A DNA stretch of 19,727 bases from Candidatus Eiseniibacteriota bacterium (lineage in GTDB: Bacteria; Eisenbacteria; RBG-16-71-46): assembly GCA_031364845.1 (NCBI GenBank), contig JANLWX010000197.1, forward strand, positions 1 to 19,727. Direction: 5' to 3'. The notes under the pieces were generated by a model. The model made no database searches. It was not told where the DNA came from and was given only the letters and a program-made list of their open reading frames with translations. The translations under genes were made by a program, and so were the position numbers. This document shows, one piece after another, positions 1-19,727 of this stretch (position 1 is the first letter of the stretch; each line of letters opens with the position of its first letter).

Positions 1-2
1 TT

Positions 3-1076
3 CACTTGAGCGGGGCGGCCATGCTGGCCTCCTACCTGACGGCGGAAAACGTGGACGAACTGCTGGCGGCCGCCGCGCGCAAGACGAACGACGAAATCGC
101 AGCACTGCTCGCGCAGCGTTTTCCGAAGAGAGATGCTCCGACGCGCATCGCGCCGGTCTCGACGCCGGCCGAGCTGCTTCCGGACTCCGCTCCCCACGGC
201 GCATCGACCCACGAGGTGGCCGTACGGCCAGTTGAAGGGTCGCGTCCCCGAGTCACGCCACTCGCACCCGAGCGCTTTCGTGTCCAGTTCACGATGCGCC
301 AGGAGATGTTGACCAAACTTCGCTACGCGCAATCTTTGCTCGGCCATCAGGTCTCTTCCGGCGACCTGCCGGAGGTGCTCGAGCGGGCGCTTGATGCGCT
401 CATCAACAAGCTCGAAAAGACGAAGTTCGCGGCCACCGACCGGCCTCGCCCCGCACGACCGCGCTCTTCCTCGAACCCGCGCTACATTCCCGCGCATGTG
501 AAGCGTGCCGTCACCGAACGCGACGGCGGACAGTGCACGTTCGTGAGCGACACCGGCGCCCGCTGTCCTGAGCGCTCGTCCCTCGAATTCGATCACATCG
601 TCGAAGTTGCGCGCGGCGGCGAAGCCACGATCGACAACCTGCGGCTACGGTGTCGCGCGCACAACCAGTACGAGGCCGAGCAGACGTTCGGCGCGGGGTT
701 CATGGCGCGCAAGCGCGAGGAAGCGCGGCGCGCGGCCGCTGAGCGAAAGCTGGCAACAGCGCAGGCAAATGACGTGCGACCCCTCCCCGCAGTGCAGGCC
801 GTGCAGGCGCCAGCGCCAGAGGGCTGCAGGGTGCCAAATCCTCCGGCACAATCTCCACGCGAATCCACGTCCGAACAGAAGGATGTCGATCAGGATCTGC
901 TGCACTGCCTCAAAGGACTGGGGGTCCGTGCGGATCAGGCGCGCCAAGCCGTGGAGCACTGTCGTGGCACCGCCGAGGCATCGATCGAGGAGCGCCTGCA
1001 CGCAGCCCTGAGGTTCATCGGTCAGCGGGGACGTACGCACTCATTGCAACTGTCGGCAATGAAACGCGCGGGATAG
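3..1076 (+). CDS. HNH endonuclease domain protein, 5'-truncated at the window edge, with a probable RuvA-C-like C-terminal helical domain
   Basis: The frame is open from position 3 (HLSGAAMLASYLTAENVDELL), so the true start is probably upstream of the window. It has the HNH motif 'RYIPAHVKRAVTERDGGQCTF...RCPERSSLEFDHIVEVARGGEATIDNLRLRCRAHN'. The C-terminus 'DLLHCLKGLGVRADQARQAV...SIEERLHAALR' follows. Stop TAG at 1074-1076. Confidence 0.85.
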   Translation, partial: HLSGAAMLASYLTAENVDELLAAAARKTNDEIAALLAQRFPKRDAPTRIAPVSTPAELLPDSAPHGASTHEVAVRPVEGSRPRVTPLAPERFRVQFTMRQEMLTKLRYAQSLLGHQVSSGDLPEVLERALDALINKLEKTKFAATDRPRPARPRSSSNPRYIPAHVKRAVTERDGGQCTFVSDTGARCPERSSLEFDHIVEVARGGEATIDNLRLRCRAHNQYEAEQTFGAGFMARKREEARRAAAERKLATAQANDVRPLPAVQAVQAPAPEGCRVPNPPAQSPRESTSEQKDVDQDLLHCLKGLGVRADQARQAVEHCRGTAEASIEERLHAALRFIGQRGRTHSLQLSAMKRAG

Positions 1077-1094
1077 TGCTCGCGCGTAGAGCCG

Positions 1095-2717: not shown

Positions 2718-2850
2718 CGCCAAACACTAGGCGTTCCGCGAGCCATTGGCCATGAGCCGCGCGAACCGGGGTTCATGGTCGTCCGTGCTCCAAGGAACGC
2801 CTGACCGCCACTTCGCGCAACGCCCCCCCGTGCCCTATCTTCCGCGATCT

Positions 2851-3699
2851 ATGCGCCAAACCCAGGGCTCCATGATCTGTCCGCACTGCGGCAAGCTCAT
2901 CAGTGTCACCGAGCCCGAGTGCCCGTTCTGTGGCGCGAAGAATCCCGGGCTCTACGGCTACGCGCCGGTGATCCAGCGTTTCATCGGGCGGCATCTCGAC
3001 TTCGTGACGCTGATCGTCGTCGCGTGCGTCGTGCTCTACATCGCGTCGCTCGCCCTGCAGCCGGAGGCGATCCTCGCTCCGGGTGGCGGCGGGCCGCTCG
3101 GCATGCTGTTCAATCTGCTGTCGCCGGGGACTCGCGCGCTCTACCAGCTCGGCATGACGGGTGGTGCGGCGTGGAGCCAGGGCTGGTGGTGGACGCTCTT
3201 CACGGCGGTGTACCTGCACGGGAGCCTGCTGCACATCTTCTTCAACGTGATGTGGATCCGAAATCTCGGGCCTACGGTCGACGAGGTCTATGGCCCGGCG
3301 CGCGGGTTCGTGATCTTCAGCGTGTCCGGTGCCGCGGGGTTTCTGGTTTCCAACCTGGCGACGGCGACGCCGACGATCGGCGCGTCCGGCAGCATCTTCG
3401 GGTTGCTCGCGGCGTTGATCGTCTATGGCCGCCGCACCGGCTCCTCGATGCTGACGCAGCAGCTGTGGCAGTACGCGATCATGATGTTCGTGATGGGCTT
3501 CGTGATGAGTTCGGTCAACAACTGGGCGCATGCGGGCGGGTTTGCGGGCGGATGGGTCGCGGGCGAGGCGATGCGGTTCGGACACGAGAAGCGCGAGAGC
3601 CTGGCGGTCCAGTTGGTGGCGCTCGGCCTGCTGGGCCTCACGGTGGTGGGATTCGTGCTGTCGTTCGTGCGCGTGACGATGATTCTGATGAAGGGCTGA
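2851..3699 (+). CDS. Rhomboid family intramembrane serine protease with an N-terminal zinc ribbon
   Basis: N-terminal CPHC...CPFC. Rhomboid motifs 'WWTLFTAVYLHGSLLHIFFN', catalytic 'IGASGSIFG' and 'NWAHAGGFAGG'. Several hydrophobic TM segments. Start placed at ATG 2851 (ATG 2872 is an alternative); the extension to 2746 in the ORF track does not look like coding sequence. Confidence 0.92.
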   Translation: MRQTQGSMICPHCGKLISVTEPECPFCGAKNPGLYGYAPVIQRFIGRHLDFVTLIVVACVVLYIASLALQPEAILAPGGGGPLGMLFNLLSPGTRALYQLGMTGGAAWSQGWWWTLFTAVYLHGSLLHIFFNVMWIRNLGPTVDEVYGPARGFVIFSVSGAAGFLVSNLATATPTIGASGSIFGLLAALIVYGRRTGSSMLTQQLWQYAIMMFVMGFVMSSVNNWAHAGGFAGGWVAGEAMRFGHEKRESLAVQLVALGLLGLTVVGFVLSFVRVTMILMKG

Positions 3700-3801
3700 C
3701 GCCGCTATTCGCCGGTTGGGGCTTCAATTGGTTCAGAACACCCAACTCGCTGCCGAAAACCTCAGGGGCACGGCACGCAGGCTCGAGTTCGAAGGGGCGG
3801 G

Positions 3802-6462
3802 ATGTCCGGATCATTCCTCGAAAATCATCTGGCGCATTCGCGCGATGAATTCACGGTGCTTCCCCCGGAGCAGCGCGGGCCGGTCGTGCGCACCGCGATC
3901 ACGGACCTCCACTACTTTTTCGACGAGGGCCGGGAGTTCGCCGAGCGCGAAGCGCCGGCTCGCAGCCGCGCGTTCGCGGCCGAGCTGTATCGCGCGATGG
4001 AGTCCGTGGGCAGCCCGGATGCGGTGACGCGCACGCTGCGCGAGCGCATCGTCACCGATGCGCTGCTGCGTACCGAAGCCGACCGCGATCAGAACGTCTA
4101 TCTGGGTCCGTTCTTCACCCGCTCGCTCACGCGCGCGGTTCCCGACGTCATCTTCCAACCGGCGACGAGCGCCGAGGTCGCGCGCGCGCTGCGCTGGGCG
4201 CGCGAACGCGGAGTGCCGGTCACGTTGCGCGGCGCGGCATCGACCGCGATGGGTGGCGCGGTGCCGAACGACGCAGGCCTGGCGCTCGATCTGTCGCGGC
4301 TCGATTCGATCGAGGTCGACGCCGCGGCCGGCGTGTGTGTCGTCGGCGCGGGCGCGCGCATGCGCACGATCCACACCGCACTCGCCGCGCGCGGGCTCGC
4401 ACTACTCGCGTATCCGTCCAATCTCGGCGGCACGTTTGCGGGTTGGTTCGCGACCGGCGGAATCGGCATGAATGCGTACGGCGCGGGGCGCGCGCTCGAC
4501 ATGGTGCGCGCGGCCGAGGTGTTGCTGCCTTCGGGCGAGCACGTGCGATTCCACGACGATGGCCGCGTCGATCTGCCCGAGAACCAGGCGCATCGCACGC
4601 TCACCGCCGCCGAGGCGGCGAGCTGGTTCCATTCACGCGGCTACCAGGCGTTCGGCCTCGCGGATCTCGCGGGCAGCGAAGGCACGCTCGGTGCCTTGCT
4701 GCAGTTGACGCTGCGCGTCGAGCCGCGGCCCGAGGTCGGGGCGTTCCTCCTGTCGTTCGCGCGCGAATCGGACGCAGCGGACGCGGTGTTGTGGCTCGGG
4801 CGCCTCGAGTTGTCTGCCAAGCCGGCGAACGTGAAGCTGCTTTCGGGATCGCATATGCACCACACGCGCCGCGTGTGGGAAGACGAGGACGCGCGCGAGT
4901 GGCACGATCATCCGGGTGCCCTCACCGACGGCTCGCAGCTTCCGTGGCGGCGCATCGCCGGTCCGCGCGAGCTGGGTGCGGCGTGCGCCGAAGATGTGCA
5001 CGATGCGGCGGCGTACCTGTTCGTCGACTTCTTCGATCTCGGGGCTGCGCGATCCTTTGCGCGCGCCGCGATCACGTGTCCCGGCGCTCCGCGCGTGCTC
5101 GATGCCGAGAGCGCGCGATTCGCGGCCGAACGCTTCAAGCCACAGCAGACCAAGCGGCTCGGACCGGGCATGCTGGCGGCCGAAATCCTGTTGCCGGCGG
5201 GCGAGGTGAAGCGCTTCCTTCCGCGCGCCGCGGCACTCGCGCGCAACGCGGGCAATGCGCTGGATGCGGAAGTCTACTTCCTCGCGGACGGCTCGGCGCT
5301 CGTGATCGCGGGTTATCTCACCGATCATCGCACCGGCGCGTTCGCGGTCGATCTGATGATCGCCCCGGCGCTGCTCGATCTCGCGATGCACGATCATCAG
5401 GGCCGGCCCTATGTGCTCGGGCGCTGGCAGTCGGCGTGGTTCGTGAACAAGTTCGGGCCCGCGGCGGCCGAGCGCCTGCGCGAGATCCGGCGCGGGCTCG
5501 ACTCGAACGCGATCGTGAACCGCGGCGTGTTCACCGGCCTCGAATTGCGCGGTGTGCTCGGCTCGATCGTTGCCGCGACGTTCGCGCCCGGCGTCACGCT
5601 GATCCGCACGATCTATCAGGTGCAAGCACTCGCATGGATGGCGCGCGCGGCGCGCGGGTTCCTGCGCGGAATGTCGGGCCCCGCGCACGGACGCGGCGCG
5701 CCGCTTCCGCACGCGACGGCGAAGGCAGGGGCGGTGGAACTCGCTCCCGAAGACCGCGCGCTGCACTGCGTGAATTGCGGCGAGTGCAATTCAGTGTGCC
5801 CGGTGTTCCACGAATCGAAGATCCGTTTGCCGCAGATGCTCGTCCACATCGGCGAGTCGATGCGCGGCAAGGAGCCGATCACTCCTGCCGGCGGCACGCT
5901 GCTCGACCTGTGCATGCGCTGCGGCAACTGCGAGCAGGTGTGCCAGGCCGGCATCACCCATCTGCCGCTCTACGAGAGCATGCAGCGCACGGCTGACGCG
6001 GCGCGCCCGCGCGATGAGGACCGCCACGCGGCGATCGTGGCCTCGGTGCGCGGATCGAACCGCTATCTGCGCGAGTTTCTGCACGTGCGCCCGGGCGGCT
6101 ACCATAAGCGCACGCCGGTCGCACTGCCCGGCGTCGCGCGTTTCATCGTGTTGCGCGCGGAGAACGATGCGGGTCCGGCGAGCACGTGCATTCATTGTGG
6201 CGCGTGCGTGGCCGTATGCCCGACGCACGCCAACCGCGAATTCGAAGGACTGGACGCGCGCTTGATCACCACGCTGCAAGAGCGCTGCATCGGCTGCGGC
6301 TCGTGTGTCGAGGTGTGTCCGAACAACCATTTGAACGGCGGCCAGACGTTGCGTGTCATGGAAGCGCCGACGCCCGACTGGTTCGCCGCAATCCGCGATT
6401 TCGAGAAGACCCAACGAGGCTCACCACCGGCAGAAGATCCGACTCACACCATTCGAACTTGA
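3802..6462 (+). CDS. FAD-binding oxidoreductase (FAD_binding_4 / GlcD-like) fused to two 2x[4Fe-4S] ferredoxin-type domains
   Basis: FAD domain motifs 'PDVIFQPATSAEVARALRWARERGVPVTLRGAASTAMGGAVP', 'GTFAGWFATGG', 'GSEGTLG' and 'IRRGLDSNAIVNRG'. Fe-S motifs CVNCGECNSVCP (5767), CMRCGNCEQVC (5911), CIHCGACVAVCP (6187) and CIGCGSCVEVCP (6286). Purine-rich AAGGGG lies upstream of the ATG. Confidence 0.88.
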   Translation: MSGSFLENHLAHSRDEFTVLPPEQRGPVVRTAITDLHYFFDEGREFAEREAPARSRAFAAELYRAMESVGSPDAVTRTLRERIVTDALLRTEADRDQNVYLGPFFTRSLTRAVPDVIFQPATSAEVARALRWARERGVPVTLRGAASTAMGGAVPNDAGLALDLSRLDSIEVDAAAGVCVVGAGARMRTIHTALAARGLALLAYPSNLGGTFAGWFATGGIGMNAYGAGRALDMVRAAEVLLPSGEHVRFHDDGRVDLPENQAHRTLTAAEAASWFHSRGYQAFGLADLAGSEGTLGALLQLTLRVEPRPEVGAFLLSFARESDAADAVLWLGRLELSAKPANVKLLSGSHMHHTRRVWEDEDAREWHDHPGALTDGSQLPWRRIAGPRELGAACAEDVHDAAAYLFVDFFDLGAARSFARAAITCPGAPRVLDAESARFAAERFKPQQTKRLGPGMLAAEILLPAGEVKRFLPRAAALARNAGNALDAEVYFLADGSALVIAGYLTDHRTGAFAVDLMIAPALLDLAMHDHQGRPYVLGRWQSAWFVNKFGPAAAERLREIRRGLDSNAIVNRGVFTGLELRGVLGSIVAATFAPGVTLIRTIYQVQALAWMARAARGFLRGMSGPAHGRGAPLPHATAKAGAVELAPEDRALHCVNCGECNSVCPVFHESKIRLPQMLVHIGESMRGKEPITPAGGTLLDLCMRCGNCEQVCQAGITHLPLYESMQRTADAARPRDEDRHAAIVASVRGSNRYLREFLHVRPGGYHKRTPVALPGVARFIVLRAENDAGPASTCIHCGACVAVCPTHANREFEGLDARLITTLQERCIGCGSCVEVCPNNHLNGGQTLRVMEAPTPDWFAAIRDFEKTQRGSPPAEDPTHTIRT

Positions 6463-6509
6463 AGCACTCACCGGGCTTCGCGCGGGTACGCTCGCTCGAG
6501 GTCCACAGT

Positions 6510-6549
6510 ACCACGCGATCCCACGGGGCCGGCAACGGCTCCGCGTGGT
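6510..6549 (+). promoter_or_regulatory. Predicted RNA secondary structure in the leader of the glutamine synthetase gene
   Basis: ACCACGCG (6510-6517) is the exact reverse complement of CGCGTGGT (6542-6549). This stem encloses a GGGCCG-GCAA-CGGCTC hairpin (6526-6541, GNRA loop, one G-U pair). It ends 5 nt before the SD GAGGAG (6555-6560). Confidence 0.4.
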
Positions 6550-6568
6550 CGAGAGAGGAGAACATCCC

Positions 6569-8770
6569 GTGACGCCATCCACTCCGCGTTCGGAGCGTCT
6601 CGCCGTCCATCAGCGCCAGCCTCGTTCCTTCGACGCCCCGCGTCTGCCCGACGGACACCGCCAGCCGGTCAGCGCCTACTACGGCCGGCACGTCCTCGAT
6701 CTCATCAAGTTGAAAGAGCGCCTGCCGCGCGAGACGTATCAGGCGCTGCTCGCCACTCTGCGCCACGCAGCACCGCTCACGCGCGAGTCTGCCGAATCGA
6801 TCGCGTCGGTCGCCCGCGAATGGGCGACGTCGCACGGCGCCACCCACTTCACGCACTGGTTTCAGCCGATGACGGGCTTGACCGCCGAGAAGCACGACAG
6901 CTTCATCGACCTCAACGTCACGATGTCGGGCGAAGCCAAGGTGCTCGAGCGCTTCTCGGGCGCGCAGCTCATGCAGAGCGAGCCCGACGCGAGCTCGTTC
7001 CCATCGGGCGGCATGCGCAGCACGTTCGAGGCGCGCGGCTACACGGCGTGGGATCCCAGCTCGCCGATGTTCCTCGTCGAAAGCGTGAACGGCCGCACGC
7101 TGTGCGTGCCTTCGGTGTTCGTGAGCTATCACGGTGAGAGCCTCGATCACAAGACTCCGTTGCTGCGCTCGCTCGAGGCGCTCAACCGCCACGCGGTGCC
7201 GTTCTTGAAACTGATCGGCGACGTCGACGTGCATGCGGTCGGCGCCACGCTCGGCTGCGAGCAGGAGTACTTCCTCGTCGATCGCGACCATCACGCACTG
7301 CGTCCGGATCTGGTGCTGTGCGACCGCACGTTGCTGGGCGCGGCTTCCGCGCGCGGGCAGCAGTTCGAGGACCACTACTTCGGCTCGATTCCGCCGCGCG
7401 TGCTGGCGTTCATGGAAGAGCTGGAGTTCGAGCTGCACCGCCTCGGTATCCCGGTGAAGACACGTCACAACGAAGTGGCGCCGATGCAGTTCGAGATGGC
7501 GCCGATCTTCGAGGACGCCAATCTCGCGAACGACCACAACGCGCTGTCGATGGACATCGCGCGCAAGGTGGCGTTGCGCCACGACTTCGTGTGTGTGTTC
7601 CACGAGAAGCCGTTCGCGCGGCTGAACGGCAGCGGCAAGCACTGCAACTGGAGTCTCGTCACCGATCGCGGCGAGAATCTGCTGGATCCGGGCCGCACAC
7701 CGCACCAGAACCTCCGGTTCCTCGCGTTCATGGCCGTGTGCCTGAAGGCGGTGCACGATCACTCGGACGCGATCCGCTTCTCGGTGGCGGCGGCGAGCAA
7801 CGATCTGCGCCTGGGTGCCAACGAAGCGCCGCCCGCGATCATCAGCGTGTTCGTCGGCGATCTGCTGACGCGCATCATCGACCGCATCGCCGCGGGCGTG
7901 ACGGGCGAGGATCCGGAGCACTTCGTGATGGAGATCGGCGTCGGCCGTCTGCCGCAGCTGGCGCGCGACAACACCGACCGCAACCGCACATCGCCGTTCG
8001 CCTTCACCGGGAATAAGTTCGAGTTCCGCGCGGTCGGAAGCTCCGCGAACTGCGCCGGACCCATGACGATGCTGCTCGCCGCGGTCGCCGATGCGCTCAA
8101 GGTGATGACGCCGCGGCTCGAGGCGAAGATCAAAGCCGGAACCGCGCGCGACCAGGCGGTGCTCGATCTGCTGCGCGAGGTGTTCACCGAGACGGCCGCG
8201 GTGCGCTTCGAAGGCAACGGCTACAGCGACGAGTGGAAGCGCGAAGCCCAGCGCCGCGGGCTGCCCGATCTCAAGGACACGCCGTCCTCGATCGCGTCAC
8301 TCGCCAAGCCCGAACGCACGGCGTTCCTGCGCGAGCTGGGCATTTTCTCGGATCGCGAGCTGGCGAGCCGGTTCAGTGTGGCGCTCGAACGTTATCTCAA
8401 GACCGTGACGCTCGAAGCCGAAACGCTGGTGGAGATGCTGTCGACGCATGTGATCCCGGCGGGTGAGAAGCAGCTCACCGCGTCGTCGCTCGCGTTGCGC
8501 GGCGCTCCTGACGGTGTCGCGGGGCTCGATCGCCGCGTGAAGGCGGTGGCGGCAGCGCTCACCGAGGCGGTCGCGGGATGTGACCGGCTCAAGGAGTTGC
8601 TCGACGGCTCGGCGAACATGCACGACGAGGCGAAGCTCGCGACCCATCTCGCGGACGTGATGCGGCCCGCGATGGACGCCGCGCGCGACGCCGCGGACCG
8701 GCTCGAGCATCTCGTGGATCACGAGCTGTGGAGCCTGCCCAAGTATCGCGAGATGTTGTTCGTTCGCTGA
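6569..8770 (+). CDS. glnA: Glutamine synthetase type III (GlnN/GSIII), about 733 aa
   Basis: GSIII motifs: THFTHWFQPMTGLTAEKHDSF, EPDASSFPSGGMRSTFEARGYTAWD, GCEQEYFLVD, KTRHNEVAP, HEKPFARLNGSGKHCNWS, RLGANEAPPAIIS, DRNRTSPFAFTGNKFEFRAVGS, WSLPKYREMLF. GTG at 6569 is preceded by SD GAGGAG (6555-6560). Confidence 0.96.
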   Translation: MTPSTPRSERLAVHQRQPRSFDAPRLPDGHRQPVSAYYGRHVLDLIKLKERLPRETYQALLATLRHAAPLTRESAESIASVAREWATSHGATHFTHWFQPMTGLTAEKHDSFIDLNVTMSGEAKVLERFSGAQLMQSEPDASSFPSGGMRSTFEARGYTAWDPSSPMFLVESVNGRTLCVPSVFVSYHGESLDHKTPLLRSLEALNRHAVPFLKLIGDVDVHAVGATLGCEQEYFLVDRDHHALRPDLVLCDRTLLGAASARGQQFEDHYFGSIPPRVLAFMEELEFELHRLGIPVKTRHNEVAPMQFEMAPIFEDANLANDHNALSMDIARKVALRHDFVCVFHEKPFARLNGSGKHCNWSLVTDRGENLLDPGRTPHQNLRFLAFMAVCLKAVHDHSDAIRFSVAAASNDLRLGANEAPPAIISVFVGDLLTRIIDRIAAGVTGEDPEHFVMEIGVGRLPQLARDNTDRNRTSPFAFTGNKFEFRAVGSSANCAGPMTMLLAAVADALKVMTPRLEAKIKAGTARDQAVLDLLREVFTETAAVRFEGNGYSDEWKREAQRRGLPDLKDTPSSIASLAKPERTAFLRELGIFSDRELASRFSVALERYLKTVTLEAETLVEMLSTHVIPAGEKQLTASSLALRGAPDGVAGLDRRVKAVAAALTEAVAGCDRLKELLDGSANMHDEAKLATHLADVMRPAMDAARDAADRLEHLVDHELWSLPKYREMLFVR

Positions 8771-8780
8771 GAGGAGCACC

Positions 8781-11700
8781 GTGAGTTCCGTTCACGACCG
8801 ACCTGCTGACCCAGAGCTCCCGGCCTTCGGGCCGGGAGCGGGGGAGACGCTGCCCTCGCACGCTGCGCTGTGGGAGGACCTGCTCGCGCTGGTCGTCGAT
8901 CCCGAACACCCGCATGTCGAGGATCGTGAGCGCAAGCGCCGCGTGCTGTCGTTTCTGCTCGAGCGCGCGGGCATCGATGAAGGCGCGTTCTGGAAGCTCG
9001 GGCGCGGTCAGCGCGGGAGAAGGTTTCTCGCGCGCTGGTCGCGTGCTTCGCGTGAGATCCCGCAGCTCGAGATCACATCGTTCGATCTCGACAAGGTGCT
9101 CAAGGAGCGCTTCCGCGACGATCCGCTGACGGTCGGCGCGGCATGGCATCACGGATACTGGCGCTCGTACTTCTCGCACGCGGCTATCACGCACCCCGCT
9201 AACGAGGGTATACGCGTGGTGTTCTCGACCGCCTGGTAAATCGTGCGCAAACACCCGGGGGTGCTGTTCCGCACCGCCGACGGCCAGACCCAGCTTCCCA
9301 TCCGCTCCGTGCGTCTCGATCTGCCGATGATCGTCGGTCCGCTACCTTACTCGGACGGCGTCACGATGGAGCGGGCCTACATGGCGGCCGCGGCGCACAT
9401 GGCGACGCTCGTTGTTCTCCACGCGCGCGACTTCGCCGCGAATCGCGAAGCGCTGCGTCCCTACGCAGCGCAGATGATGGTGCGTTTCGATCACGCTCAC
9501 ATCGCAGGTCTGCGCGGGGATGGCGTGGCCGCTGAAGCGCTGCGCGAACTCCTCCCGCACAGTGCGATCGCCGAGATCGAGTGGAGCCCGTCGCTCGCGG
9601 CCGACATTCGCGAGTTGCGCGCGTTCTCACCAGAGCTTCTGGTCTCGGTGTTCATGAAGATGAGCGACGGCGAAATGCTCGAGGTTGCGGGCCGCGAGAA
9701 AACCGACTTCTGGAGCGCGCTCGAAGAGGCCGTCCGTCTCGAAAACGTCGCGGTGATCCACTACCACGCGGGGCCCCAGAAGTCGTACCGGCTCACGCCG
9801 CGGATCGATGCCTTCTTGAAAGCGCGCTTCCTGCGCGCGCGCGTCCAGCTTGTCTCCGCCGGCGGAACCACCGACACGAACGCTTCGGCGGCGACGGTCT
9901 ACGAAGCCGTCCTGCTCGGCGCCAACGGCGGTGCGATGACCGACGTGGCCGGCATCGCACTGCGTCCGGAATTGATCGACGTCTATCACGGCGCCGACCC
10001 GGCACCCGTGATCGAGGGCCTCGCTGCCCTCGACCCCGAGGAACTGCGCGAGCTCGCCGAGAACACGCTCGCGTGCTGGCAGCACAGCATTCTCGACTTC
10101 CTCTCGTGCATGGGCATCGACGACATCCAGAAGACCTCGGGCAACACGATGGCGATCACGCTGACCGAGGACTGGATTCGCGAGGTCGATGCGCTCGCCA
10201 CGCCCGAGTTCGGCAACGTGAATGCGGCCCTCAACCGGCGTCGCGTCGAAGCCGAGCCGGTGCCGGGCGCGGTGCGCGAGAAGTATCGCGCGTCGGCGCT
10301 GCTCCAAGAGCGCGTGCCGGATCTGCCGCAGGTTGCCGCCGCAAGAGTGCTCGCGCACGACAACGCGAACTTCCATCTCGAGAATACGAACCGCAATCTG
10401 AGCGCCGACTTCCTCGAAGTCATCTATCGCATGGCGGCGGGCGACCTGCCGCGCGTCGACGATTTCCTGATGGAGAGCGACATGGGTCCGATGTCGCTCG
10501 ATGCGATCGGACTCAAGGTGTCGCGGGAGTCGATCGCGTGGTCGCTCGAACGTCTTGCGCGGGATCCGCGTCTCCTGGACTACGTCTCGCTCGCGGTGCC
10601 GCGTGGCTTCGTCCGGCATGGCGCGGTCGCGCCACGCGCGGCCGTCGAGATCCGCGCGACCGAAGCGGGTCCGGCGCTCGCCGCGTTCACCGCGGATGCG
10701 CGCGGCGGATTCGAGATCGCGCACGGCGCGGACCATCCGCTCGGGGCCGCGATCGAGGGCGACGCGTCCTTGTGGCTCGTCGCGCGCGATGCCGAAGGTG
10801 CCCTGCGAAGCCTGGAGCTGACGGCCTCGGCGCACGGAGGACACGGGCTCTCGGTGGCGCGCGCATCGCAGGATGGAGCGGTCACGCTGCGCCGCCATGC
10901 GCGCGGCGGCGTCACCGTCGCGGGCTTCGGGTTCCGTGAGCCGATCTGGCACGGCCCCGTCGCGCACGCGAGCATCTCACTCGGTGCCGCGTCCGAGGAT
11001 CTGCTGGTCGCGCGCATCGAAGGCAACGCGGGCCTCGCCATGACTTCGTCGGGTGAAGGCGGCCCGATCCGGTTCAGCGGCGACGAGATGGCGTGGGAGA
11101 GTCTGCAGGCCGCGAGCGGACACTTCGGCATTCACGCCGCCGACCTCCGTCGCGTGCGCGACGTCGAGATCAAGATCAATCAGGGTGCCAAGCCCGGCAA
11201 GGGCGGTCGCCTGTCGGGTGCCAAGGTCACGAGCACCGTGAGCAAGGCCCGCAACATTCCGGTCGGCACCGACGCGCTGTCGCCCGATCCCAAGCACGAC
11301 ATCTATTCGATCGAGGACATGCCGGCCGAAGTGTGGCTGTGGCTGCTCTATCACAACCACTGCGGCATCAAGATCACGGGTTCCAACTACACGCGCTTCG
11401 TTGCCGCCGGCATGTGGTCGAACTTCGTCGTCGATTATCTGCTGGTCGATGCCGGTCTCGGTGGCTCGGGCAACTATCACGCGGACAGCTCGCACGTCGG
11501 CTGGCCCGACATCTTCCGCACGATCCTGCACACGCATCACGCGCTGGTGTCGGAGAAGGTCGATCTCGACCGCAAAGGCTCGCTCGAGTCGATCCGCGAT
11601 CTCAACGGTGCCCCGTTCGGCGCCGGCGGCGGCACGCGGCTGCTCGCCTCGGGCGGCCTGCGCGGCGAACTCGACATGCTGAAGGTGATGATCGCGGGCG

Positions 11701-14700
11701 CCGACGCGCTGGTCGAGGCCAGCATCGGCAAGGCGGTGGCGTTCGGCTGCAACCAGTGTGGCAACTGCCACCTCGATTGTCCGCGCGGCGGCATCACCAC
11801 CAAGCCCGAACTGACGATCCAGAACGATCGCGGCCTCATGAAGCAGCGGTTTCGCAACTGGACCGTGATCAACATGGTGAAGCTCGCCGTGATGATCGAT
11901 GCGATCAACCGCGAGAGCGGCGCCCTGGCCGCGGATGGCAGCGTCGCGCATGCCGGCCGCATGATCGACGACATCCGTCTGCTGCGCGGGCGCACCGATC
12001 TGCTCGTGATGCCCCGGCACGAACTTCCTGCGGGCTCGCTGCGCGGCCCGGTGACCGCCGAGATCGCGGTCGCGCACCCGCCTTCCGCGCACGCGCGTGA
12101 CACCCGCGCGGCCGATGCCGCGGGGGCTCCGGCAATGGCCGGCGGCGGAGCCAACGGCAGCACGACGCGATTCGAACCCGAACGCGACTCGTGCCGCGTC
12201 GGCTCGCTCGCGGTATCGGAGCCGGTGACGGTCGATGCGATCTGGGAGTCGGCGCGTCTCTCGTACAACGGCGGCAACAATCGCGGCGGTGGCATCGACT
12301 TCGCGGGCTTCGCACCGGCCGCGGTGGGCGAGAAGACCTGCATCATCGTGAACACGATCGGGCCCGACCGCGCCGACACGATGCGCGAGATGCTCGGCCA
12401 CTTCGGCGGCTGCCGGTTCTTCGACGCCGCGGGCGCCGAACTCACGCTCGAAGCCGCGCGCGCGCGCATGGCGGAGTTCCGCGTCCCCGTCCGCGACACC
12501 TACGACTCCGAAGACGGCTGGCGCCGCGCCGACCTGCGCGAGAACCCCGGCGACTTCTATACGTGGTTCGTCGAACTGCGGCCCGAAGTCCTCGAGCGCT
12601 ACGGGCTGCTGCTGGTGGCGAGCGAGCACTGGCTCCAGCGCCACACGCGCTATGGCGACATCCCCGACGCCACGCTGGCGTGGGCCCTTGCGCATCCCTT
12701 AGAGCAGCTCGCGGATGCGGGCGACGTCACGCGCGACCGGCTCGCGGAGTTCGTCGCGGACGTGCGCGAGGAGTACTTCACCGCCTTCGCGCACATGCTC
12801 GACTCGCGCTTCTACCGCACGCACGCGCCCGCCGGATCCGCGCCGCCCGCGAACAAGTACGCCGCCAAGCGCCGCGGCTTCGTCGTGTCGATGGGCGAGG
12901 ATCTCGGCGCGATCAAGATCTCGGGCTGGACGCACACGATCCCCGAGTACTTCGACTTCGACCGGTTCTGGGCCGGTTATCCCGGCGCGCGCGAAAGCGG
13001 CGGCATCGAGATGACGATCAAAGGCTCAACCGCACGCACGACCGCGCTCCACGCGCATGTGTGGGGCATGCACCACCGTTATCCGACCAACTCGCCCGCG
13101 ATCGATGCCGAGGGTCGCGGCAATCCGGCCGGCGCTCATCCGTTCAAGGCGTACAACGTGTTGCTGATGCACAACGGCGAGCAGGTCGCGGTCGATTCGA
13201 CGTCACCGTTCCTGATGGAATATGGCTTCGTCCATGCCGACCCCTCGATGGGAGATGGACACGCGGACTATCACGGCGACTCGGTCTACGAGCGCAAGGC
13301 GCTCACCGACACCGAATACGCGGCCTACCTGGTCGACTTCACGCGGCGCGTGCTGGGGCTCACGACCGAGGAGGCGAGTCAGATCATCTCGCCGATCACG
13401 GGCTTCGATCTCGCGAGCATGGACGACGATCGCCGCCGCAAGTTCGAGCTGCTGATGCGTAACTACGTCCAGCTCACGCCGACCGGTCCCTACAAGTTCA
13501 CGATCGTGGAGTCGCGCCGCCGCCGCGCGGCGACCGCATCTGGATCGGAACGCGGGCCGCTCGCGCGCGTCGTCGGCTTCCGCGAGAACATGGACATCAA
13601 ATTCCTGCGCCCGCACGAGATCGTCGTGAGCGTCGACACCGCGCGCGGCGGTGTCCATGTGGTCGCGAACGGCAGCGAAGCGAAGATCGCCGACAGCATG
13701 CTGCGCACGCTGCACGCGCAGGGCGTGCTCGCCGAAGCCGGGCACGATCTGCGATTCAACATGCGTCCGGGCGGCGCCCCGCAGCGTCACGACTACGGCG
13801 GCGTGTTCGAGGTGTTCACGGTGCCCGGCAGCGGGACGCTCGACCTGCGCAACCGATTCGGTGAGCCGGTCGAGGTCGAGCGTCGCGGTACGAAGGCGGA
13901 TCTCGCGCGTCCGATCACCACGCTCGCCGACAAGGCCAACGCCGAATGGCGCCACCACGCCGAAACGCGGCTCGCGCAACTCGCGGCCGTGGTCGACGAA
14001 GACGCGCCTGGCCGCGCGCGATATGGGCCCGATGACGAACTGCCCGCTCCCGCGAACGAACTGATCGAAGCCACGCTCGAACGCGCCCGCGCGATGACGT
14101 TCGAGGACTATCGCTGGTTCACCGAGCTCGCGTTGCCGGAGTGGGCGCGCGGCCCGCGCACGCCGTCTGAAACCGCAGATGCGCGCACCGCGGTCGCTTT
14201 GCGCATGCTCGCGCACCTGCGCACGCGGCTCTCGCTCTGCGATCTGGGGGGCAAGGCGCTGTCGAGCATGAACTACCTGACCGACGGCGGCCGTGCGGGC
14301 AACGGCACCGCCGAAGGCGGTGTGTACCGATTGCTCGACCGTGTTCCCGCGCTCCATCACGCGCTCGGCGCCACGACCGAGCTCGCACGCTGGGGCCGGC
14401 TCACGCTCGAAACACGCGATGACCTCGCGGCTCCCGTCGATCCGGCCGGCGACGTGCTGGTGATCGACTTCGCGGGATTCGAGAGCGAGTCGTTCAAGCT
14501 GGACTCCGCCTCGCGCACGGTGAGCGAAGCGGTGCGGATGGGTTGGCGGAATTTCGTGTGCTACGGATTCATCGGCGGCCCGCGCTATGTCGGCACCAAT
14601 CTCGCGAGCCCGGACGGGATCGCGGCCGCCGGTGTGACGATCGAGATGTACGGCCGCGAGTTCGGCGACTTCATCGGCGCACTGTTGGAAGGCGCGCGCA

Positions 14701-15380
14701 TCCACGTGTTCGGACAGGGGCAGAGCCATCTCGGCATGAAGGCCGATTCGGGATATCTGTTCGTGCTGCAGGACATCCTGAACACGGGCATGTACGCCGC
14801 GCACGGCGCGACCGTCAGCGTATGGGACTCGGGCTCGCGCTTCGCGGTCGCGGGGCAGAACAAAGTGTGGCTCGCCGACGGCAAGACCCCCGCACCCGGA
14901 TTCCGCTCGATCCACTTCGGATCGCCGAACGAGTACGCGTTCGAGTATCTGATGTCGGGCGGCGACAACTCCTTCCATGTCGTGATGGGGTTGCGAAAGC
15001 CGGACGCGCGCGGCGAGTTGTCGCTCAGGCCGCGGCCCTACTCGGGCAAGTTCTTCATGTCCGGTGCCGCCGCGGGTCGCGTGTTCGTGTTCGATCCGCT
15101 GGTGCGCCTCGATCCGGCGCAGTATGGCGGCAACGTGCTGTCGTCGATCACGCCGGAAGAGTGGACGCAGGAGCTGGGTCCGATGATCGCAAGCGAAGCG
15201 AAGCGCCGCGGTCTGCCGATCCGCATCGAGGGTGACTCGCTCACCATCAAGCTCGAAGGCGAGTGGCGCCGGTGGCGCTACGACGAGGCGTTCGCGAAAT
15301 TGATACCGGTCAAGATCGCGCGCGCGTCACAGCAGCAGGGTGTGGTACCGCCCGCGCTGGTGCAGATCGTCGGGGAATAG
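8781..15380 (+). CDS. gltB: Giant rearranged glutamate synthase-like protein (degenerate FMN-type barrel + FMN/Fe-S synthase domain + internal class II glutamine amidotransferase + GXGXG domain); one frame interrupted by an in-frame TAA at 9237-9239 (ORF track splits it into 8781-9239 and 9243-15380)
   Basis: Strong SD GAGGAG (8771-8776) before GTG 8781; no SD before 9243. The two ORFs share a frame (offset 462 nt). FMN-domain signature EIKINQGAKPGKGGRLSGAKV...SPDPKHDIYSIED (QGAKPG at 11181), ASGGLR and CNQCGNCHLDCP (11748). GATase-II motifs ERDSCRVG (Cys at 12192), HHRYPTNS (13071), AHPF, HNGE (13170) and TDTE. C-terminal GXGXG/beta-helix-like region GPRYVG...GDFIGALLEGARIHVFGQGQSHLG...EYAFEYLMSGG...MSGAAAGRVFV. 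The symbol denotes family membership, not canonical orthology. Confidence 0.85.
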
Positions 15381-15427
15381 GCGACCACGCGAATGCCCGC
15401 CGTGCAGCGTCCCGAACTCAGCGCACG

Positions 15428-16150
15428 ATGACCGCGCCCGAGATCCTCGAACACACGATCACCACGCCGAACGGCAAGGTGCCCGCGCTGTGGATGCGCC
15501 CGCCGGCCGCACGCGCGGCGCTGGTGCTCGCGCACGGCGCAGGGGCGGGCATGCGGCATTCGTTCATGGAGGCCATCGCCGCGCGCTGCGCGGCCAACGG
15601 TCTCGCGACGCTGCGCTACGAGTTTCCGTACACCGCGGCCGGATCGCGAAGACCCGATCCGCAGCCGGTGCTGCTCGAAACGGTTCGGGCTGCCGTCGCC
15701 GTGGCGCGCGGGCTCGGCGGCGATCTGCCGCTGATCGCGGGCGGGAAGTCGATGGGTGGGCGCATGACCACGCTCGCCGCGGCCGAGGAGCCGCTCAATG
15801 GCGTGCGCGGGATCGTGCTCGTGGGATTTCCGCTGCACGGCGCCGGCCAGATGCCGAACAGCGCGCGCGCCGCGCACCTCGACCAGGTCCAGGTGCCGAT
15901 GCTGTTCCTCCAGGGCACGCGCGACGCGCTCGCCGATCTCGACCTGATGCGCGGGGTTTGCGGCCGGCTCGGCTCCCGCGTCACACTGCATGTCGTCGAG
16001 GGCGCCGACCACAGCTTTCACGTTCCGAAACGCTCCGGCCGCGACGACGCGATGGTGCTGGATGAACTCGCCGTTTCGACCGTGGTATGGATCGAAACGC
16101 TTCAGCTCATCGCCCGCCGCCGCCAGACCCGGGAGGACAAGGCCGAATGA
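15428..16150 (+). CDS. Alpha/beta fold hydrolase (dienelactone hydrolase / KANL3-Tex30-like)
   Basis: LVLAHGAGAGM, nucleophile elbow GGKSMGGR, GFPLH, FLQGTRD (Asp) and EGADHSF (His). ATG at 15428; the ORF-track start at 15263 overlaps the preceding gene. Confidence 0.9.
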   Translation: MTAPEILEHTITTPNGKVPALWMRPPAARAALVLAHGAGAGMRHSFMEAIAARCAANGLATLRYEFPYTAAGSRRPDPQPVLLETVRAAVAVARGLGGDLPLIAGGKSMGGRMTTLAAAEEPLNGVRGIVLVGFPLHGAGQMPNSARAAHLDQVQVPMLFLQGTRDALADLDLMRGVCGRLGSRVTLHVVEGADHSFHVPKRSGRDDAMVLDELAVSTVVWIETLQLIARRRQTREDKAE

Positions 16151-16845
16151 AGTTCCACATCGGGACCAGCGGTTACTCGTACGCCGAGTGGAAGGGCAAG
16201 TTCTACCCGGAAAAGATCAAGCCCGCCGACATGCTGCCTTACTACGCGACCCAATTCGGCGCGGTCGAGATCAACTACACGTTCTATCGCATGCCGAAGC
16301 CCGAAATGGTCCAGAGCTGGACCGCCCGCGTTCCGCCCGGGTTCCAGTTCGTGCTCAAGGCGCCGCGGCGTGTGACGCACGACCGGCGACTGGCCGATGT
16401 CGGCGAAGTCCTCGGATATTTTCTCAACGCGGCGATGACGCTCGGAGACCATCGCGGACCGCTGCTGTTCCAGCTTCCGCCCAATTTCAAGCGTGATGAC
16501 GCGCGCCTCGCGGACTTCCTGGTACAACTGCCGGCCACAGTCCGTGCCGCGTTCGAGTTTCGCAACGCCTCATGGTTCGACGATACGGTGTTCACGCTGC
16601 TGAAGACCCACCAGGCCGCGCTCTGCATCGCGGACACCGAGGACGGACTCGACACGCCGTTCGTCGCGACCGCGCGGTGGGGATACTTCCGGCTGCGCGA
16701 TGTCGACTACGCCGACGGCGAGCTGGAGGCGTGGATCGCCCGCGCGCGTGAACCGGAGTGGAGCGAGGCGTTCGTGTTCTTCAAGCACGAGGACGAAGCG
16801 CGCGGTCCGGAGTTCGCGCGGCGCTTCTCGGAACTCGCGGTCTGA
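16147..16845 (+). CDS. DUF72 (YecE-like) family protein
   Basis: IGTSGYSYAEWKGKFYP, AVEINYTFYRMP, FVLKAPRRVTH, LLFQLPPNF, EFRNASWF, YFRLR and VFFKHEDEARGP. ATGA overlap with the upstream stop and SD GGAGGA at 16132-16137. Confidence 0.93.
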   Translation: MKFHIGTSGYSYAEWKGKFYPEKIKPADMLPYYATQFGAVEINYTFYRMPKPEMVQSWTARVPPGFQFVLKAPRRVTHDRRLADVGEVLGYFLNAAMTLGDHRGPLLFQLPPNFKRDDARLADFLVQLPATVRAAFEFRNASWFDDTVFTLLKTHQAALCIADTEDGLDTPFVATARWGYFRLRDVDYADGELEAWIARAREPEWSEAFVFFKHEDEARGPEFARRFSELAV

Positions 16846-16863
16846 TCCAGGGCGCTCGGCCCG

Positions 16864-16885
16864 GATGCTCCGCATCGCCTATACT
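16864..16885 (+). promoter_or_regulatory. Putative -10 element (TATACT) with an adjacent short palindrome upstream of the outer-membrane protein gene
   Basis: TATACT at 16880-16885 in a GC-rich intergenic region. GATGC-tcc-GCATC inverted repeat at 16864-16876. No clear -35 element. Confidence 0.3.
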
Positions 16886-16931
16886 GCCCGACCACTAGAC
16901 CCCAAGAGCCACGACCGACCTGGGAGCTGAC

Positions 16932-17513
16932 ATGACGAACCGAGTACTCCCGCGACACGTGGCGGGACTGGCCGCCGGAATCGTTCTGATGTGCGGTACG
17001 GCGATGGTGCTGATCGCGCCGCGCGCGCGCGCTCAGGATCCGGAGTTCCGCAGCAACGTGTCGATCGCCGGAGGTCCGATCTTTCCTGTCGGCGCCCGGC
17101 CTCCGTTCGACGAACTCGGCAGCACCTATATGGCCGCGATCTCGGTGGGCGACGATTTCTCGACCGTCGGCTTTGCGCTCGGCTATTCGGTGTTCGGCGC
17201 AAGCCCGCTCGCGGACCGCGGGACGAGCGTCTCGCAGTTCGAGCTGCGCGCCGACTGCGTGCCGTTCTCTCCCGACACATGGTCACCGTATCTGCGCCTG
17301 GGCGCCGGCGCGTACAACGTCGACCTCGACCGGTCGATCAAGGACAGCACCTCGCGCCGGGTCGGAATCGCGACCGGGGTCGGTGTGCGGTGGGCGCCGC
17401 GGTGGCACACGGCGATGACGCTGGTCGCCTCGTATCACAACGTGCCGTCGCGCGGAACCTCGACGCGGCAGTGGATCGGCCTCACCCTCGAGCTGCTGCG
17501 CTGGATGGACTGA
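16932..17513 (+). CDS. Small outer-membrane beta-barrel (OmpA/OmpW-like) protein with a signal peptide
   Basis: Signal peptide ending APRARA-Q. Amphipathic beta-strand segments 'WSPYLRLGAGAYNV', 'VGIATGVGVRW', 'LVASYHNV' and 'QWIGLTLELL'. GGGAG SD upstream of ATG 16932. Confidence 0.7.
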   Translation: MTNRVLPRHVAGLAAGIVLMCGTAMVLIAPRARAQDPEFRSNVSIAGGPIFPVGARPPFDELGSTYMAAISVGDDFSTVGFALGYSVFGASPLADRGTSVSQFELRADCVPFSPDTWSPYLRLGAGAYNVDLDRSIKDSTSRRVGIATGVGVRWAPRWHTAMTLVASYHNVPSRGTSTRQWIGLTLELLRWMD

Positions 17514-17522
17514 AGCCGGTCC

Positions 17523-19727
17523 TCACGCAGGACCGAGCACCGCCCTGACTTTGTGCGTGGCACCGTCGTCCGTGAGCCGGATGCCCGCTTTGGGATCGAG
17601 CGCTGTTCCATCCAGCTCGAGGCTCACGATGCCCGTGGTTGCATGGTTCGGGTTCTCGATCTGCACTTCGTAGGTCGCCGAGTGATGCCGCAGGCGGATC
17701 GAGTAACCCGGCCAGTTGCGCGGGATCGCCGGATCCAGATGCAGGACGCCGTCGCGCACGCGCACACCGAGAATCCACTCCAGCCCCGCGCGATGGAGCC
17801 AGCCGGCGGCCCCGGTGTACCACGTCCAGCCACCGCGGCCGGTGTGCGGGGGCTCGGCGTAGACGTCGGCCGCGACGACGTACGGCTCGGCGCCGTAGCG
17901 CTGCATGTCCTCACGGTTCGTGGCGTGCATGATCGGATTCAACATCTGGAAGATCGCGGCCGCGCGATCGCCGTCGCCGAGCTCGGCGAACGCGATCGCG
18001 GTCCACACCGCCGCGTGTGTGTACTGCCCGCCGTTTTCGCGGATGCCGGGCACATAGCCCTTGATGTAGCCCGGCTCGAGCGGCGTGCGATCGAACGGGG
18101 GCGTGAACAGCAGTACCAGGCCCGATGCGGGGCGGATGAGATCGCTCTCGACCGCCGCCATCGCGCGCACCGCGCGTTCGGGATCGGCCGCACCGCTCAG
18201 TACCGCCCACGACTGCGCGATCGAATCGATCCGGCACTCGTCGCCCGAGTCGGTTCCGAGCGGAGTTCCGTCGTCGAAGTACGCGCGCCGGTACCAGCCG
18301 CCGTCCCACCCGTGGCGTTCCAATGCCGCGGCCATTTCGGTCATGTGCGTGCGCCACGCGAGCGCGCGCGCGGGTTCGCCGCGCGCTTCCGCAATCGGGG
18401 CGAACGCGCGCAGGTTGGCGTACAGGAACCAGCCGAGCCACACGCTCTCGCCCTTGCCGCCTTCGCCGACCCGGTTCATCCCGTCGTTCCAGTCGCCGGT
18501 CCCCATCAACGGCAGCCCGTGACTTCCGACCGCGAGGCTGCGATCGAGCGTGCGCGCGCAATGCTCGTACAACGAGGCGCGCTCGTTCGAAATCCGCGGC
18601 TCGAAGTACGACTCGTGCTGATCTTCGTTCAGCGTCTCGCCGTCGAGGAACGGCACGATCTCACCGAGCACGGCGTGATCGCCGCTCGCCGCGATGTACT
18701 GGGTCACCGCGTACGGCAGCCACAGCAGGTCGTCCGAGATGCGCGTGCGCACACCACGGCCCGACGGCGGATGCCACCAGTGCTGGACGTCGCCCGCGAC
18801 GAACTGGCGCGCGGCGGCGCGCAACAGATGCGCGCGGGTGAGGTCGGGCCGCACGTTGCTCAAGGCCATCATGTCCTGGAGCTGGTCGCGGAATCCGTAG
18901 GCGCCGCCCGCCTGATAGAACCCGGCGCGCGCCCAGATGCGCGAGCTGAGCGCCTGGTACAGGAGCCAGCGGTTCACGAGCAGATCCATCGCGGGCTCCG
19001 GGGTGGAAATCTGAACCGCCCCCAGCACCTCGTCCCAGCGCCGCGTCACCTCGCGCAGCAGTTCGTCGATGTTCGCCTTGCGATAGCGCCCGATCAGCTC
19101 CCGCGCGCGGTCGCGGTCGGCGGTCTCGCCCAATAGAAATACGATGTCCGCGCGCGCGCCGGGCCTTATCTCGATCACGGTGCGCAACGCGGCGCACGGG
19201 TCGAGACCCGCTCCGACCTTGCCCGACAGCGGATCTTGAATCCGAAGCGCGCGCGGCAGCGCGGTCGAGCCGTTGCGTCCGAGGAACTCGGTGCGGTCTG
19301 CGGTCCATGACGTCTGCTTGCCGGCGAGATCGGCAAACGCGATACGCCCGCCGAACTCGCCGCTCCATGCGCTGCGCGCGAACACCGCGTTCGTCATCCC
19401 GTCGATCTCGGTGATGACGTGCGGAGGCCGCCCGCCGCGCGATTCGCCGAGCACCCACTCGACGTACGCGACGATCGAGATGCGGCGCGTGCGGCCCGAG
19501 AGATTCTTCAACGAGATGCGCGTGATCTTGACCGGATCCTCGGGCGGAACGAACTGCAGCATTTCGCTCGAGATGCCGCGCGCCGTGTGACGGAAGCGGC
19601 TGTAGCCCTGGCCGTGATGAGCGGCATGGAACGCGGTTGCACTGCGTACCGGCAGCGCAGTGGGGCACCACACTTCGCCCGAGGCTTCGTCGCGGAAATA
19701 GAACACCTCACCCGACGAATCGGAGAC
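17523..19727 (-). CDS. GH94 glycoside phosphorylase domain, probably the C-terminal part of a cyclic beta-1,2-glucan synthase/phosphorylase (NdvB/ChvB/Cgs-like); 5'-truncated at the window edge
   Basis: The frame is open to the window end (VSDSSGEVFYFRDE...). Motifs HGQGYSRF, DRTEFLGRNG, GAGLDPCAAL, FYQAGGAYGFRDQLQD, GDVQHWWHPPSGRGVRTRISDDLLWLP, catalytic GTGDWNDGMN, GYIKGYVPGIRENGGQYTHAA and GRGGWTWYTGAAGW. Confidence 0.9.
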   Translation of the reverse strand, partial: VSDSSGEVFYFRDEASGEVWCPTALPVRSATAFHAAHHGQGYSRFRHTARGISSEMLQFVPPEDPVKITRISLKNLSGRTRRISIVAYVEWVLGESRGGRPPHVITEIDGMTNAVFARSAWSGEFGGRIAFADLAGKQTSWTADRTEFLGRNGSTALPRALRIQDPLSGKVGAGLDPCAALRTVIEIRPGARADIVFLLGETADRDRARELIGRYRKANIDELLREVTRRWDEVLGAVQISTPEPAMDLLVNRWLLYQALSSRIWARAGFYQAGGAYGFRDQLQDMMALSNVRPDLTRAHLLRAAARQFVAGDVQHWWHPPSGRGVRTRISDDLLWLPYAVTQYIAASGDHAVLGEIVPFLDGETLNEDQHESYFEPRISNERASLYEHCARTLDRSLAVGSHGLPLMGTGDWNDGMNRVGEGGKGESVWLGWFLYANLRAFAPIAEARGEPARALAWRTHMTEMAAALERHGWDGGWYRRAYFDDGTPLGTDSGDECRIDSIAQSWAVLSGAADPERAVRAMAAVESDLIRPASGLVLLFTPPFDRTPLEPGYIKGYVPGIRENGGQYTHAAVWTAIAFAELGDGDRAAAIFQMLNPIMHATNREDMQRYGAEPYVVAADVYAEPPHTGRGGWTWYTGAAGWLHRAGLEWILGVRVRDGVLHLDPAIPRNWPGYSIRLRHHSATYEVQIENPNHATTGIVSLELDGTALDPKAGIRLTDDGATHKVRAVLGPA

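Follow-up and report, generated by a model that had tools for sequence, protein, structure and literature searches.

A putative glutamate synthase variant with a proposed new electron subunit, encoded as a fused precursor in Candidatus Eiseniibacteriota

Description

The window analyzed here is a 19,727-nucleotide stretch of DNA that makes up the entire contig JANLWX010000197.1 (positions 1 to 19,727, forward strand) of Candidatus Eiseniibacteriota bacterium assembly GCA_031364845.1, a 4.6 Mb genome that is 97% complete. It carries a gene for a fused precursor with three modules (B1, B2 and C; coordinates in Table 1) downstream of a gene for a flavin adenine dinucleotide (FAD) and Fe-S flavoprotein (module A). 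Judged from sequence, the system appears to be a real and uncharacterized variant of glutamate synthase (glutamine:2-oxoglutarate aminotransferase, GOGAT) that has a new kind of electron subunit and is probably processed from a polyprotein. Its chemistry is, with good confidence, the conversion of glutamine and 2-oxoglutarate to two glutamates in one direction or the other, and the family most likely carries out this same chemistry even though it fails GltB membership. Forward glutamate synthesis is the reading that we mildly favor for its main role.

In the mechanism that we infer from the observed domains, conserved residues, synteny and natural fusions, the precursor (2,199 aa) would be cut at E-x-D-S/C (the slash marks the cut). 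The N-terminal chain would hold a spare barrel and a flavin mononucleotide (FMN) barrel with one Fe-S cluster, the C-terminal chain would hold an N-terminal nucleophile (Ntn) amidotransferase and a beta-helix, and both chains would reassemble as in GltB. Glutamine would be hydrolyzed by Cys1, the ammonia would reach 2-oxoglutarate through a tunnel that runs between both barrels, and the imine would be reduced to glutamate by reduced FMN. The FAD of module A would oxidize the donor, and four Fe-S clusters would relay electrons to the FMN in place of GltD and NADPH.

Domain organization

An earlier note, made from the window's sequence alone, had proposed a glutamate synthase with the domain order barrel - FMN - glutamine amidotransferase (GATase) - GXGXG. 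That order holds: Pfam Glu_synthase (residues 571-874 of a 2045-aa open reading frame (ORF), DNA 10953-11864, E 3e-44) precedes the Cys at 12192 and the beta-helix, and distant relatives carry GATase_6 and GXGXG. The domain scan bears the note out directly for Glu_synthase and through relatives for GATase and GXGXG, which were undetected by Pfam or NCBIfam in the window protein itself; Glu_syn_central had no Pfam match in that protein. A homologue search gave 168 matches among 7,999 scored candidates, and the homologue counts used here rest on the 119 listed of these (57-90% identical, 1664-2341 aa, median 2173), of which 113 are at least 2,000 aa.

Module B2 is conserved around the FMN site. 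Residues aligning to A. brasilense E886, K931, Q934, K937, R957, E978 and K999 are each present in 119/119 listed homologues, as is a Cys motif (C-x2-C-x2-C-x3-C, 11748-11780); the T in the GGTG of GltB is S in this family. Module B1 was examined in a model of the N-half of a homologue (locus L013; mean predicted local distance difference test (pLDDT) score 69), in which a barrel spans residues ~140-420 with pLDDT mostly 75-92 over residues 141-410. The top structural match of this barrel was GltB 6s6s (Z 19.1, root-mean-square deviation 3.8, 294 aligned), with flavocytochrome b2 tied (18.5). Against E. coli GltB, the B1 profile matched the FMN domain (independent E-value 1.7e-10) and the central domain at 0.02-0.26 only. 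Because it matches the FMN domain and not the central domain, B1 is best read as a separate duplicate of the FMN barrel, a full barrel rather than the truncated central barrel of GltB, and it may stand in for that central domain. In GltS, it is the FMN domain and the central domain that line the ammonia tunnel (PMC8097209).

A family-only profile of the C-half had 0 matches to PDB sequences at E<=10 and matched 266 proteins among 1.84 billion representatives. Distant relatives of the C-half carry Pfam GATase_6 and GXGXG in colinear alignment (E 6e-54 over profile positions 1-979), and a profile widened with them matched the GltB beta-helix (1205-1360, E 2e-9), FwdC, GlmS (2.5e-6) and PurF (2.7e-5). 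The GATase and GXGXG assignments are thus supported through distant relatives. The class II amidotransferase features are present (a Cys nucleophile, Arg, HxRY/F-x-T as HHRY-x-T, HNG as HNGE, and TD as TDTE), and the positions checked are invariant, with C984, R1014, R1279, N1311, G1312 and D1356 (long-ORF numbering) each found in 119/119 listed homologues. These motifs look GltB1-like.

Ntn amidotransferases require a free N-terminal Cys, and the catalytic Cys here is internal, at residue 1138 of the precursor. It follows a variable, unconserved linker (18-98 residues in 116/119 homologues measured) that ends in [ED]-[HRL]-D-S. In E. coli GltB, E-R-D-N precedes the Cys at residue 12 (an 11-residue prosequence), and the numbering offset between A. 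brasilense chains 6s6s and 1ea0 corresponds to a 36-residue leader ahead of Cys1. Since the nucleophilic Cys is internal, the precursor is probably cut into two chains of ~1,140 and ~1,060 residues. The earlier note's term "single-chain" would then apply to the precursor only, and the note left out the upstream FAD/Fe-S gene, which belongs to the system.

GltB/GltD (A. brasilense 1ea0, 2vdc and 6s6s; E. coli GltB) and ferredoxin-dependent Fd-GOGAT (1llw) have the same four kinds of domain, and GltB shares with the window protein the aligned FMN-site residues, E978 and an E-x-D-x motif ahead of the catalytic Cys. The two differ in order (GATase-central-FMN-GXGXG in GltB, per PMC8097209), in size (2,200 aa here vs 1,500 aa) and in family score, the window protein reaching 85 bits where NCBIfam GltB (PRK11750) asks for 1047. 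Unlike the GltB central domain, the spare barrel is complete and looks like a separate copy of the FMN barrel; the Cys motif replaces the [3Fe-4S] C-x5-C-x4-C of E. coli GltB; and the partner is a vanillyl-alcohol oxidase (VAO)-type FAD/Fe-S flavoprotein rather than GltD.

Reading frame

The enzyme gene starts at a GTG (8781) with GAGGAG five bases 5' of it, and the open frame of about 2200 codons described earlier is not intact as assembled: a single in-frame TAA (9237-9239) divides it into ORFs of 152 and 2045 codons (the long ORF is 9243-15380). Public sequencing runs were compared over this stretch. One contig from run X2 (555 bases, depth 4.9) has GAC at 9237-9239; for seven other letters (9185-9220), runs X1 (depth 17) and X2 concur and restore the family consensus, as do the other letters read by runs X1-X3. 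A single study produced all four public runs, of which X1 may be the source sample. The codon itself is covered by one contig. The column of the stop is Asp in 98/114 aligned homologues, nearby residues are L, E and E in 114/114 where the window deviates, the 152-aa piece is continuous with the remainder in 114/119 homologues, and the frames of 15 relatives are open with no stops. Because the independent contig has GAC and 114/119 homologues are continuous there, the TAA is most likely an assembly error. Recoding of the TAA was ruled out, as it occurs at one site only and the X2 contig reads GAC.

That the gene is an assembly chimera, or dead in this organism through the TAA, would be consistent with the stop and with coverage of its codon by that single low-depth contig. 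The 119 homologues, the stop-free relatives, the letters restored by X1-X3 and the intact catalytic residues all argue against it, and we regard this explanation as highly improbable here and largely refuted for the family. Full-length homologues of the same architecture, which the earlier note suggested looking for, do exist (119 listed homologues and 70 loci).

Module A

Module A is the proposed electron subunit, replacing GltD or ferredoxin. Among 70 loci used for synteny, 12 start inside the enzyme gene, and module A lies upstream of the enzyme in 58/58 of the loci having upstream DNA; it was found in 15/16 carrier genomes among 31 relatives examined, and it is fused to the enzyme in five distant proteins (P0167, P0197, P0212, P0221 and P0267). 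It has two pairs of 4Fe-4S motifs (four Fe-S motifs in all). Among solved structures, D-lactate dehydrogenases come closest to it (LctD 7qh2, E 9e-22; Atlas clusters at 0.95). LctD, LDHD and GlcD share its FAD-binding and cap domains, and module A has Fe-S domains fused on. None of five genomes tested (0/5) exceeded the NCBIfam TIGR01318 cut-off for GltD, with weaker GltD-like matches in all 5.

Distribution and origin

The 70 loci from the genome scan belong, by record title, to Eisenbacteria (25), Actinomycetota (28, mostly Thermoleophilia), Planctomycetota (3), Krumholzibacteriota (3), Latescibacterota (1), no named group (7) and other labels (3). The modules also occur as separate genes. 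A four-gene form in G063 and G064 consists of A (FAD/Fe-S), B1 (ferredoxin and barrel), B2 (ferredoxin and FMN) and C (GATase-GXGXG); a three-gene form occurs in G083 and G117, and a split form without module A nearby in G062, G080, G143 and G146. One-chain forms of 2,526-3,016 aa were also found (P0167, P0212 and P0221, with P0267 partial). P0197 (3152 aa) is one chain in the order C-A-B1-B2 (GATase-GXGXG, FAD/Fe-S, barrel, FMN) and appears to be a second, independent fusion order. A split variant at L085, L087, L088 and L089 has no module A nearby and no ferredoxin motifs in B1/B2.

A four-module operon in Desulfobaccales, Syntrophales and others carries these modules in an identical gene order. 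Homology is colinear over the whole length, with module C ~21-29% identical to that of the window family. There, module C stands alone (~880 aa) and is annotated "glutamate synthase", and one module-C query matched 7,684/8,000 scored candidates. Relative to this operon, the window family has B1, B2 and C fused, B1/B2 have lost the ferredoxin motifs, and A has an extra motif pair. A further distant module-C relative lies in a 1,414-codon open frame (L166/L168, genome G384 contig C30).

Because the same modules occur as separate genes in that order, the domain order appears to be the operon order frozen by fusion, and the window enzyme is best read as one fusion state of the four-module operon and not as a reshuffled GltB. 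It would thus stem from a fusion of modules that were once encoded by separate genes, a history distinct from that of GltB. This upholds the earlier proposal of a fusion of split modules while changing the parts: the source appears to be an operon with GATase and GXGXG already joined, not the archaeal-type GltB1/GltB2/GltB3 trio. Those archaeal-type genes are three small genes that are not known to have a spare barrel or VAO-type partner. They too are separately encoded domains, whereas the window's parts are fused and much larger, and a pattern of three small genes was not found: there is one gene here, and the nearest split relatives have a GATase-GXGXG protein of ~880 aa. In a tree of FMN domains (20 rows, no archaeal references, L091-L093 left out), branches were long, that of the family having 2.46 changes per column, and the placement of the family was not resolved. 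Neither this architecture nor the wider four-module operon was found described in a literature search that reached few subscription journals and no supplements, in agreement with the earlier suggestion that the enzyme may be undescribed.

Direction of the reaction

Forward GOGAT activity is supported because every catalytic position checked is invariant in the 119/119 listed homologues, GltB too has a prosequence before Cys1, module A is constantly upstream (58/58) and is fused in the five distant proteins, no GltD exceeds the cut-off in 5/5 genomes, and none of 24 phylum carriers has another Glu_synthase domain at E<=1e-20. GS-GOGAT, where GS is glutamine synthetase, is the classical pairing, and it is matched by a type III GS (GSIII) within the operon in 5/58 informative loci and beside the split form in G117. 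In Thermoleophilia (301 genomes, 13 known carriers), 10/13 carriers have no other Glu_synthase match (vs 33/288 other genomes) and 11/13 keep GS, which also favors the forward direction. The window's own genome has the operon GSIII plus a glutamate dehydrogenase (GDH).

Several observations weigh against forward synthesis. Invariant K653 and R656 stand where GltB has E940 and Q943, and an invariant Arg follows Cys1. The FMN barrel of the L013 model is weak (pLDDT <50 over much of its length). In alignment with LctD 7qh2, module A has VYYLADGEAL and RPYVLGRW at FGHAGDGNLH and SGEHGIG, and it is without the His...His and Glu-His motifs of D-2-hydroxy-acid dehydrogenases, which have metal-binding and catalytic roles. 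Canonical GltB is also present in 3/13 Thermoleophilia carriers. At E<=1e-20, 117/153 phylum genomes have no Glu_synthase domain, so GOGAT is dispensable there, and GDH is present in 5/5 GS-less genomes tested. Forward GOGAT is also hard to justify in 17 carriers without a GS match, since it would burn glutamine that they cannot make.

The association with GS was scored in 153 phylum genomes (>=85% complete) by Gln-synt_C match. No match was found in 22/153 (20 listed; the tallies by family imply the other two, G064 and G083). The system occurs in 20/22 GS-less genomes (17 fused, 3 split) vs 12/131 GS-positive genomes (Fisher p 8e-15, kin not independent), or in 19/22 vs 9/131 when only module-A-bearing or fused forms are counted. 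Two genomes with an FMN-domain match only, G065 (locus inspected) and G048, were excluded, and including them gives 14/131. G027 was counted as GS-positive though its sole match is weak (137 bits vs 429), and G020 and G475, both flagged as unpublished, contribute one GS-positive non-carrier row each, on which no claim depends. Within one family the figures are 16/18 vs 7/43 (p 1e-7, kin again not independent); of the 31 relatives, 13 carry the enzyme without a GS match, 15 carry GS without the enzyme, 3 carry both and 0 neither; and a tree of the enzyme from 24 carriers requires at least 5 switches of GS state. Five GS-less genomes that are 97-100% complete lack Gln-synt_N (0/5) and have 5-7 class II amidotransferase-domain matches each, and one of the five has glutaminyl-tRNA synthetase (GlnRS). 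In carriers G184, G185 and G192 and in non-carriers G037 and G039, the best GS-family match is a divergent GlnA-like protein, a candidate GS (L124-L128, 250-261 bits where the cut-off is 429).

This distribution, the repeated changes in GS state and the five near-complete GS-less genomes that have GDH point to a tentative alternative, in which the same machine runs in reverse in the cell as an ATP-free, redox-driven glutamine synthesis that makes GS dispensable. FMN would oxidize glutamate, the ammonia would be channeled to the Cys site, and glutamine would be formed from a second glutamate; module A would pass the electrons to an acceptor whose potential is above that of NAD(P), and GDH would recycle 2-oxoglutarate. 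With rough, rounded potentials, the couple lies at ~-0.07 V, or between -0.14 and -0.19 V when typical pool sizes are assumed, so that it would come close to equilibrium with a partner weaker than NADPH. Against this reversal, a GS-family match is present in 34/44 other carrier genomes reached through loci, and GS is absent in only 2/13 Thermoleophilia carriers vs 1 to 8/288 others (p 0.005-0.06, with 7 genomes not retested). The frequency of GDH in Thermoleophilia carriers (12/13 vs 198/288 others, p 0.12) is uninformative either way. GS-less G084 (92% complete) and G099 (90%) are without the system, and split G062 (85%) is without module A nearby. The glutaminase site of canonical GltS is switched on only by 2-oxoglutarate and reducing equivalents (PMC8097209), a peptide-feeding lifestyle could explain why GS was lost as well as why the enzyme was kept, and absence from an assembled genome does not prove absence. 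A split system in Gln-synt_N-negative Thermoleophilia was ruled out, as 9/10 tested have GS and 1/10 has a clear module-C match.

A reversible enzyme would fit both patterns, the GS-less Eisenbacteria and the GS-keeping Thermoleophilia. It is conceivable, though doubtful, that the A + B/C complex is such a glutamine:2-oxoglutarate oxidoreductase, a self-cleaving polyprotein working on a mild redox partner, which GS-less bacteria run backwards with GDH to obtain glutamine without ATP.

Parts derived from GltB might instead act on another amide or amine, or serve the catabolism of glutamine or glutamate, with electrons leaving through A. N-methylglutamate synthase MgsABC, which has GltB1, GltB3 and GltB2 domains, is a precedent for such repurposing (PMC6237917), and the long family branch, the invariant changes near both active sites and co-occurrence with canonical GltB in 3 genomes are consistent with a different substrate. 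The checked glutamine- and 2-oxoglutarate-site positions are retained, however, and neighborhood clusters of 78 loci show no recurrent gmaS, mgd or other pathway gene next to the enzyme. MgsABC is encoded by three genes (closest matches 300, 225 and 442 aa) paired with GmaS, a context absent from these loci, and the operon GS is of GSIII_N type (40.8 bits vs a cut-off of 469.6 for TIGR03105). We consider another substrate improbable.

Genomic features

Coordinates are collected in Table 1. Besides module A, GSIII and a rhomboid, neighbors are lineage-specific across the 78 loci, and a promoter/terminator scan gave no signal above shuffled controls; no RNA holder was listed either. In 4-9 Actinomycetota loci, genes for a 2-oxoacid:ferredoxin oxidoreductase, a NuoF-like protein and a GltD-like fusion lie several kb downstream on the opposite strand (e.g. 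L075:23026-26205, L068:20385-22286 and L055:22774-24141). In GS-less G083, a glutamine-dependent NAD synthetase (L084:13725-15464) is immediately upstream of module A.

Table 1. Features of the window and the evidence for each.
Feature	Position	Strand	Basis
Module A, 886-aa FAD (VAO/p-cresol methylhydroxylase (PCMH)-type) + Fe-S flavoprotein	3802..6462	+	Pfam FAD_binding_4 114-250, Fer4 653-718 and 794-842
Type III glutamine synthetase inside operon, accessory	6569..8770	+	GSIII_N E 6e-68; GTG 6569 with AGAGGAG upstream
Whole enzyme gene, modules B1-B2-C	8781..15380	+	frame of 2,200 codons, ~2199-aa precursor
Module B1, complete but degenerate eight-stranded barrel	9153..10190 (approximate limits)	+	homologue model, profile
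Error-rich assembly stretch including TAA	9185..9260	+	public-run contigs and homologue consensus
Beta-rich insertion before FMN barrel, ~115 residues	10581..10925	+	strand-rich model segment 599-693; lower conservation
Module B2, FMN/synthase barrel	10926..12010	+	Pfam Glu_synthase
Linker ending E-R-D-S, proposed cleavage site	12011..12191	+	length and motif comparison
Module C, class II (Ntn) glutamine amidotransferase, begins at Cys	12192..13877	+	invariant residues, profile matches
Module C, GXGXG beta-helix, past ~185-residue linker	14433..15380 (approximate limits)	+	profile matches, Pfam GXGXG in relatives
ORF cut by contig start, resembling a repeat-family HNH protein	1..1076	+	HNH (E 6e-6), weak RuvA_C
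Probable secreted protein, 542 aa	1095..2723	-	terminal FlgD Ig-like domain
Zinc-ribbon rhomboid protease	2746..3699	+	also upstream of module A in 14/70 loci, mostly Eisenbacteria
Alpha/beta hydrolase, DUF72 and weak outer-membrane beta-barrel gene, downstream of enzyme	15263..17513	+	hydrolase and DUF72 recur in L013 and L077 alone
GH94 glycoside phosphorylase, truncated at contig end	17523..19727	-	

Significance

As taught, glutamate synthase has a single architecture, and its donor is either NAD(P)H or ferredoxin. The family described here would be a separately assembled glutamate synthase in which one barrel is a duplicate of its own, the Ntn nucleophile lies inside the chain and the electron subunit is of a third kind. 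The wider four-module form is common yet apparently unstudied. The tie to GS loss raises the question of whether redox chemistry, rather than ATP, can drive the formation of glutamine in cells; if the enzyme does run in reverse, it would be a second route to glutamine. In current genome-based models the family's amidotransferase domain goes unnoticed, and such organisms would be classed as glutamine auxotrophs.

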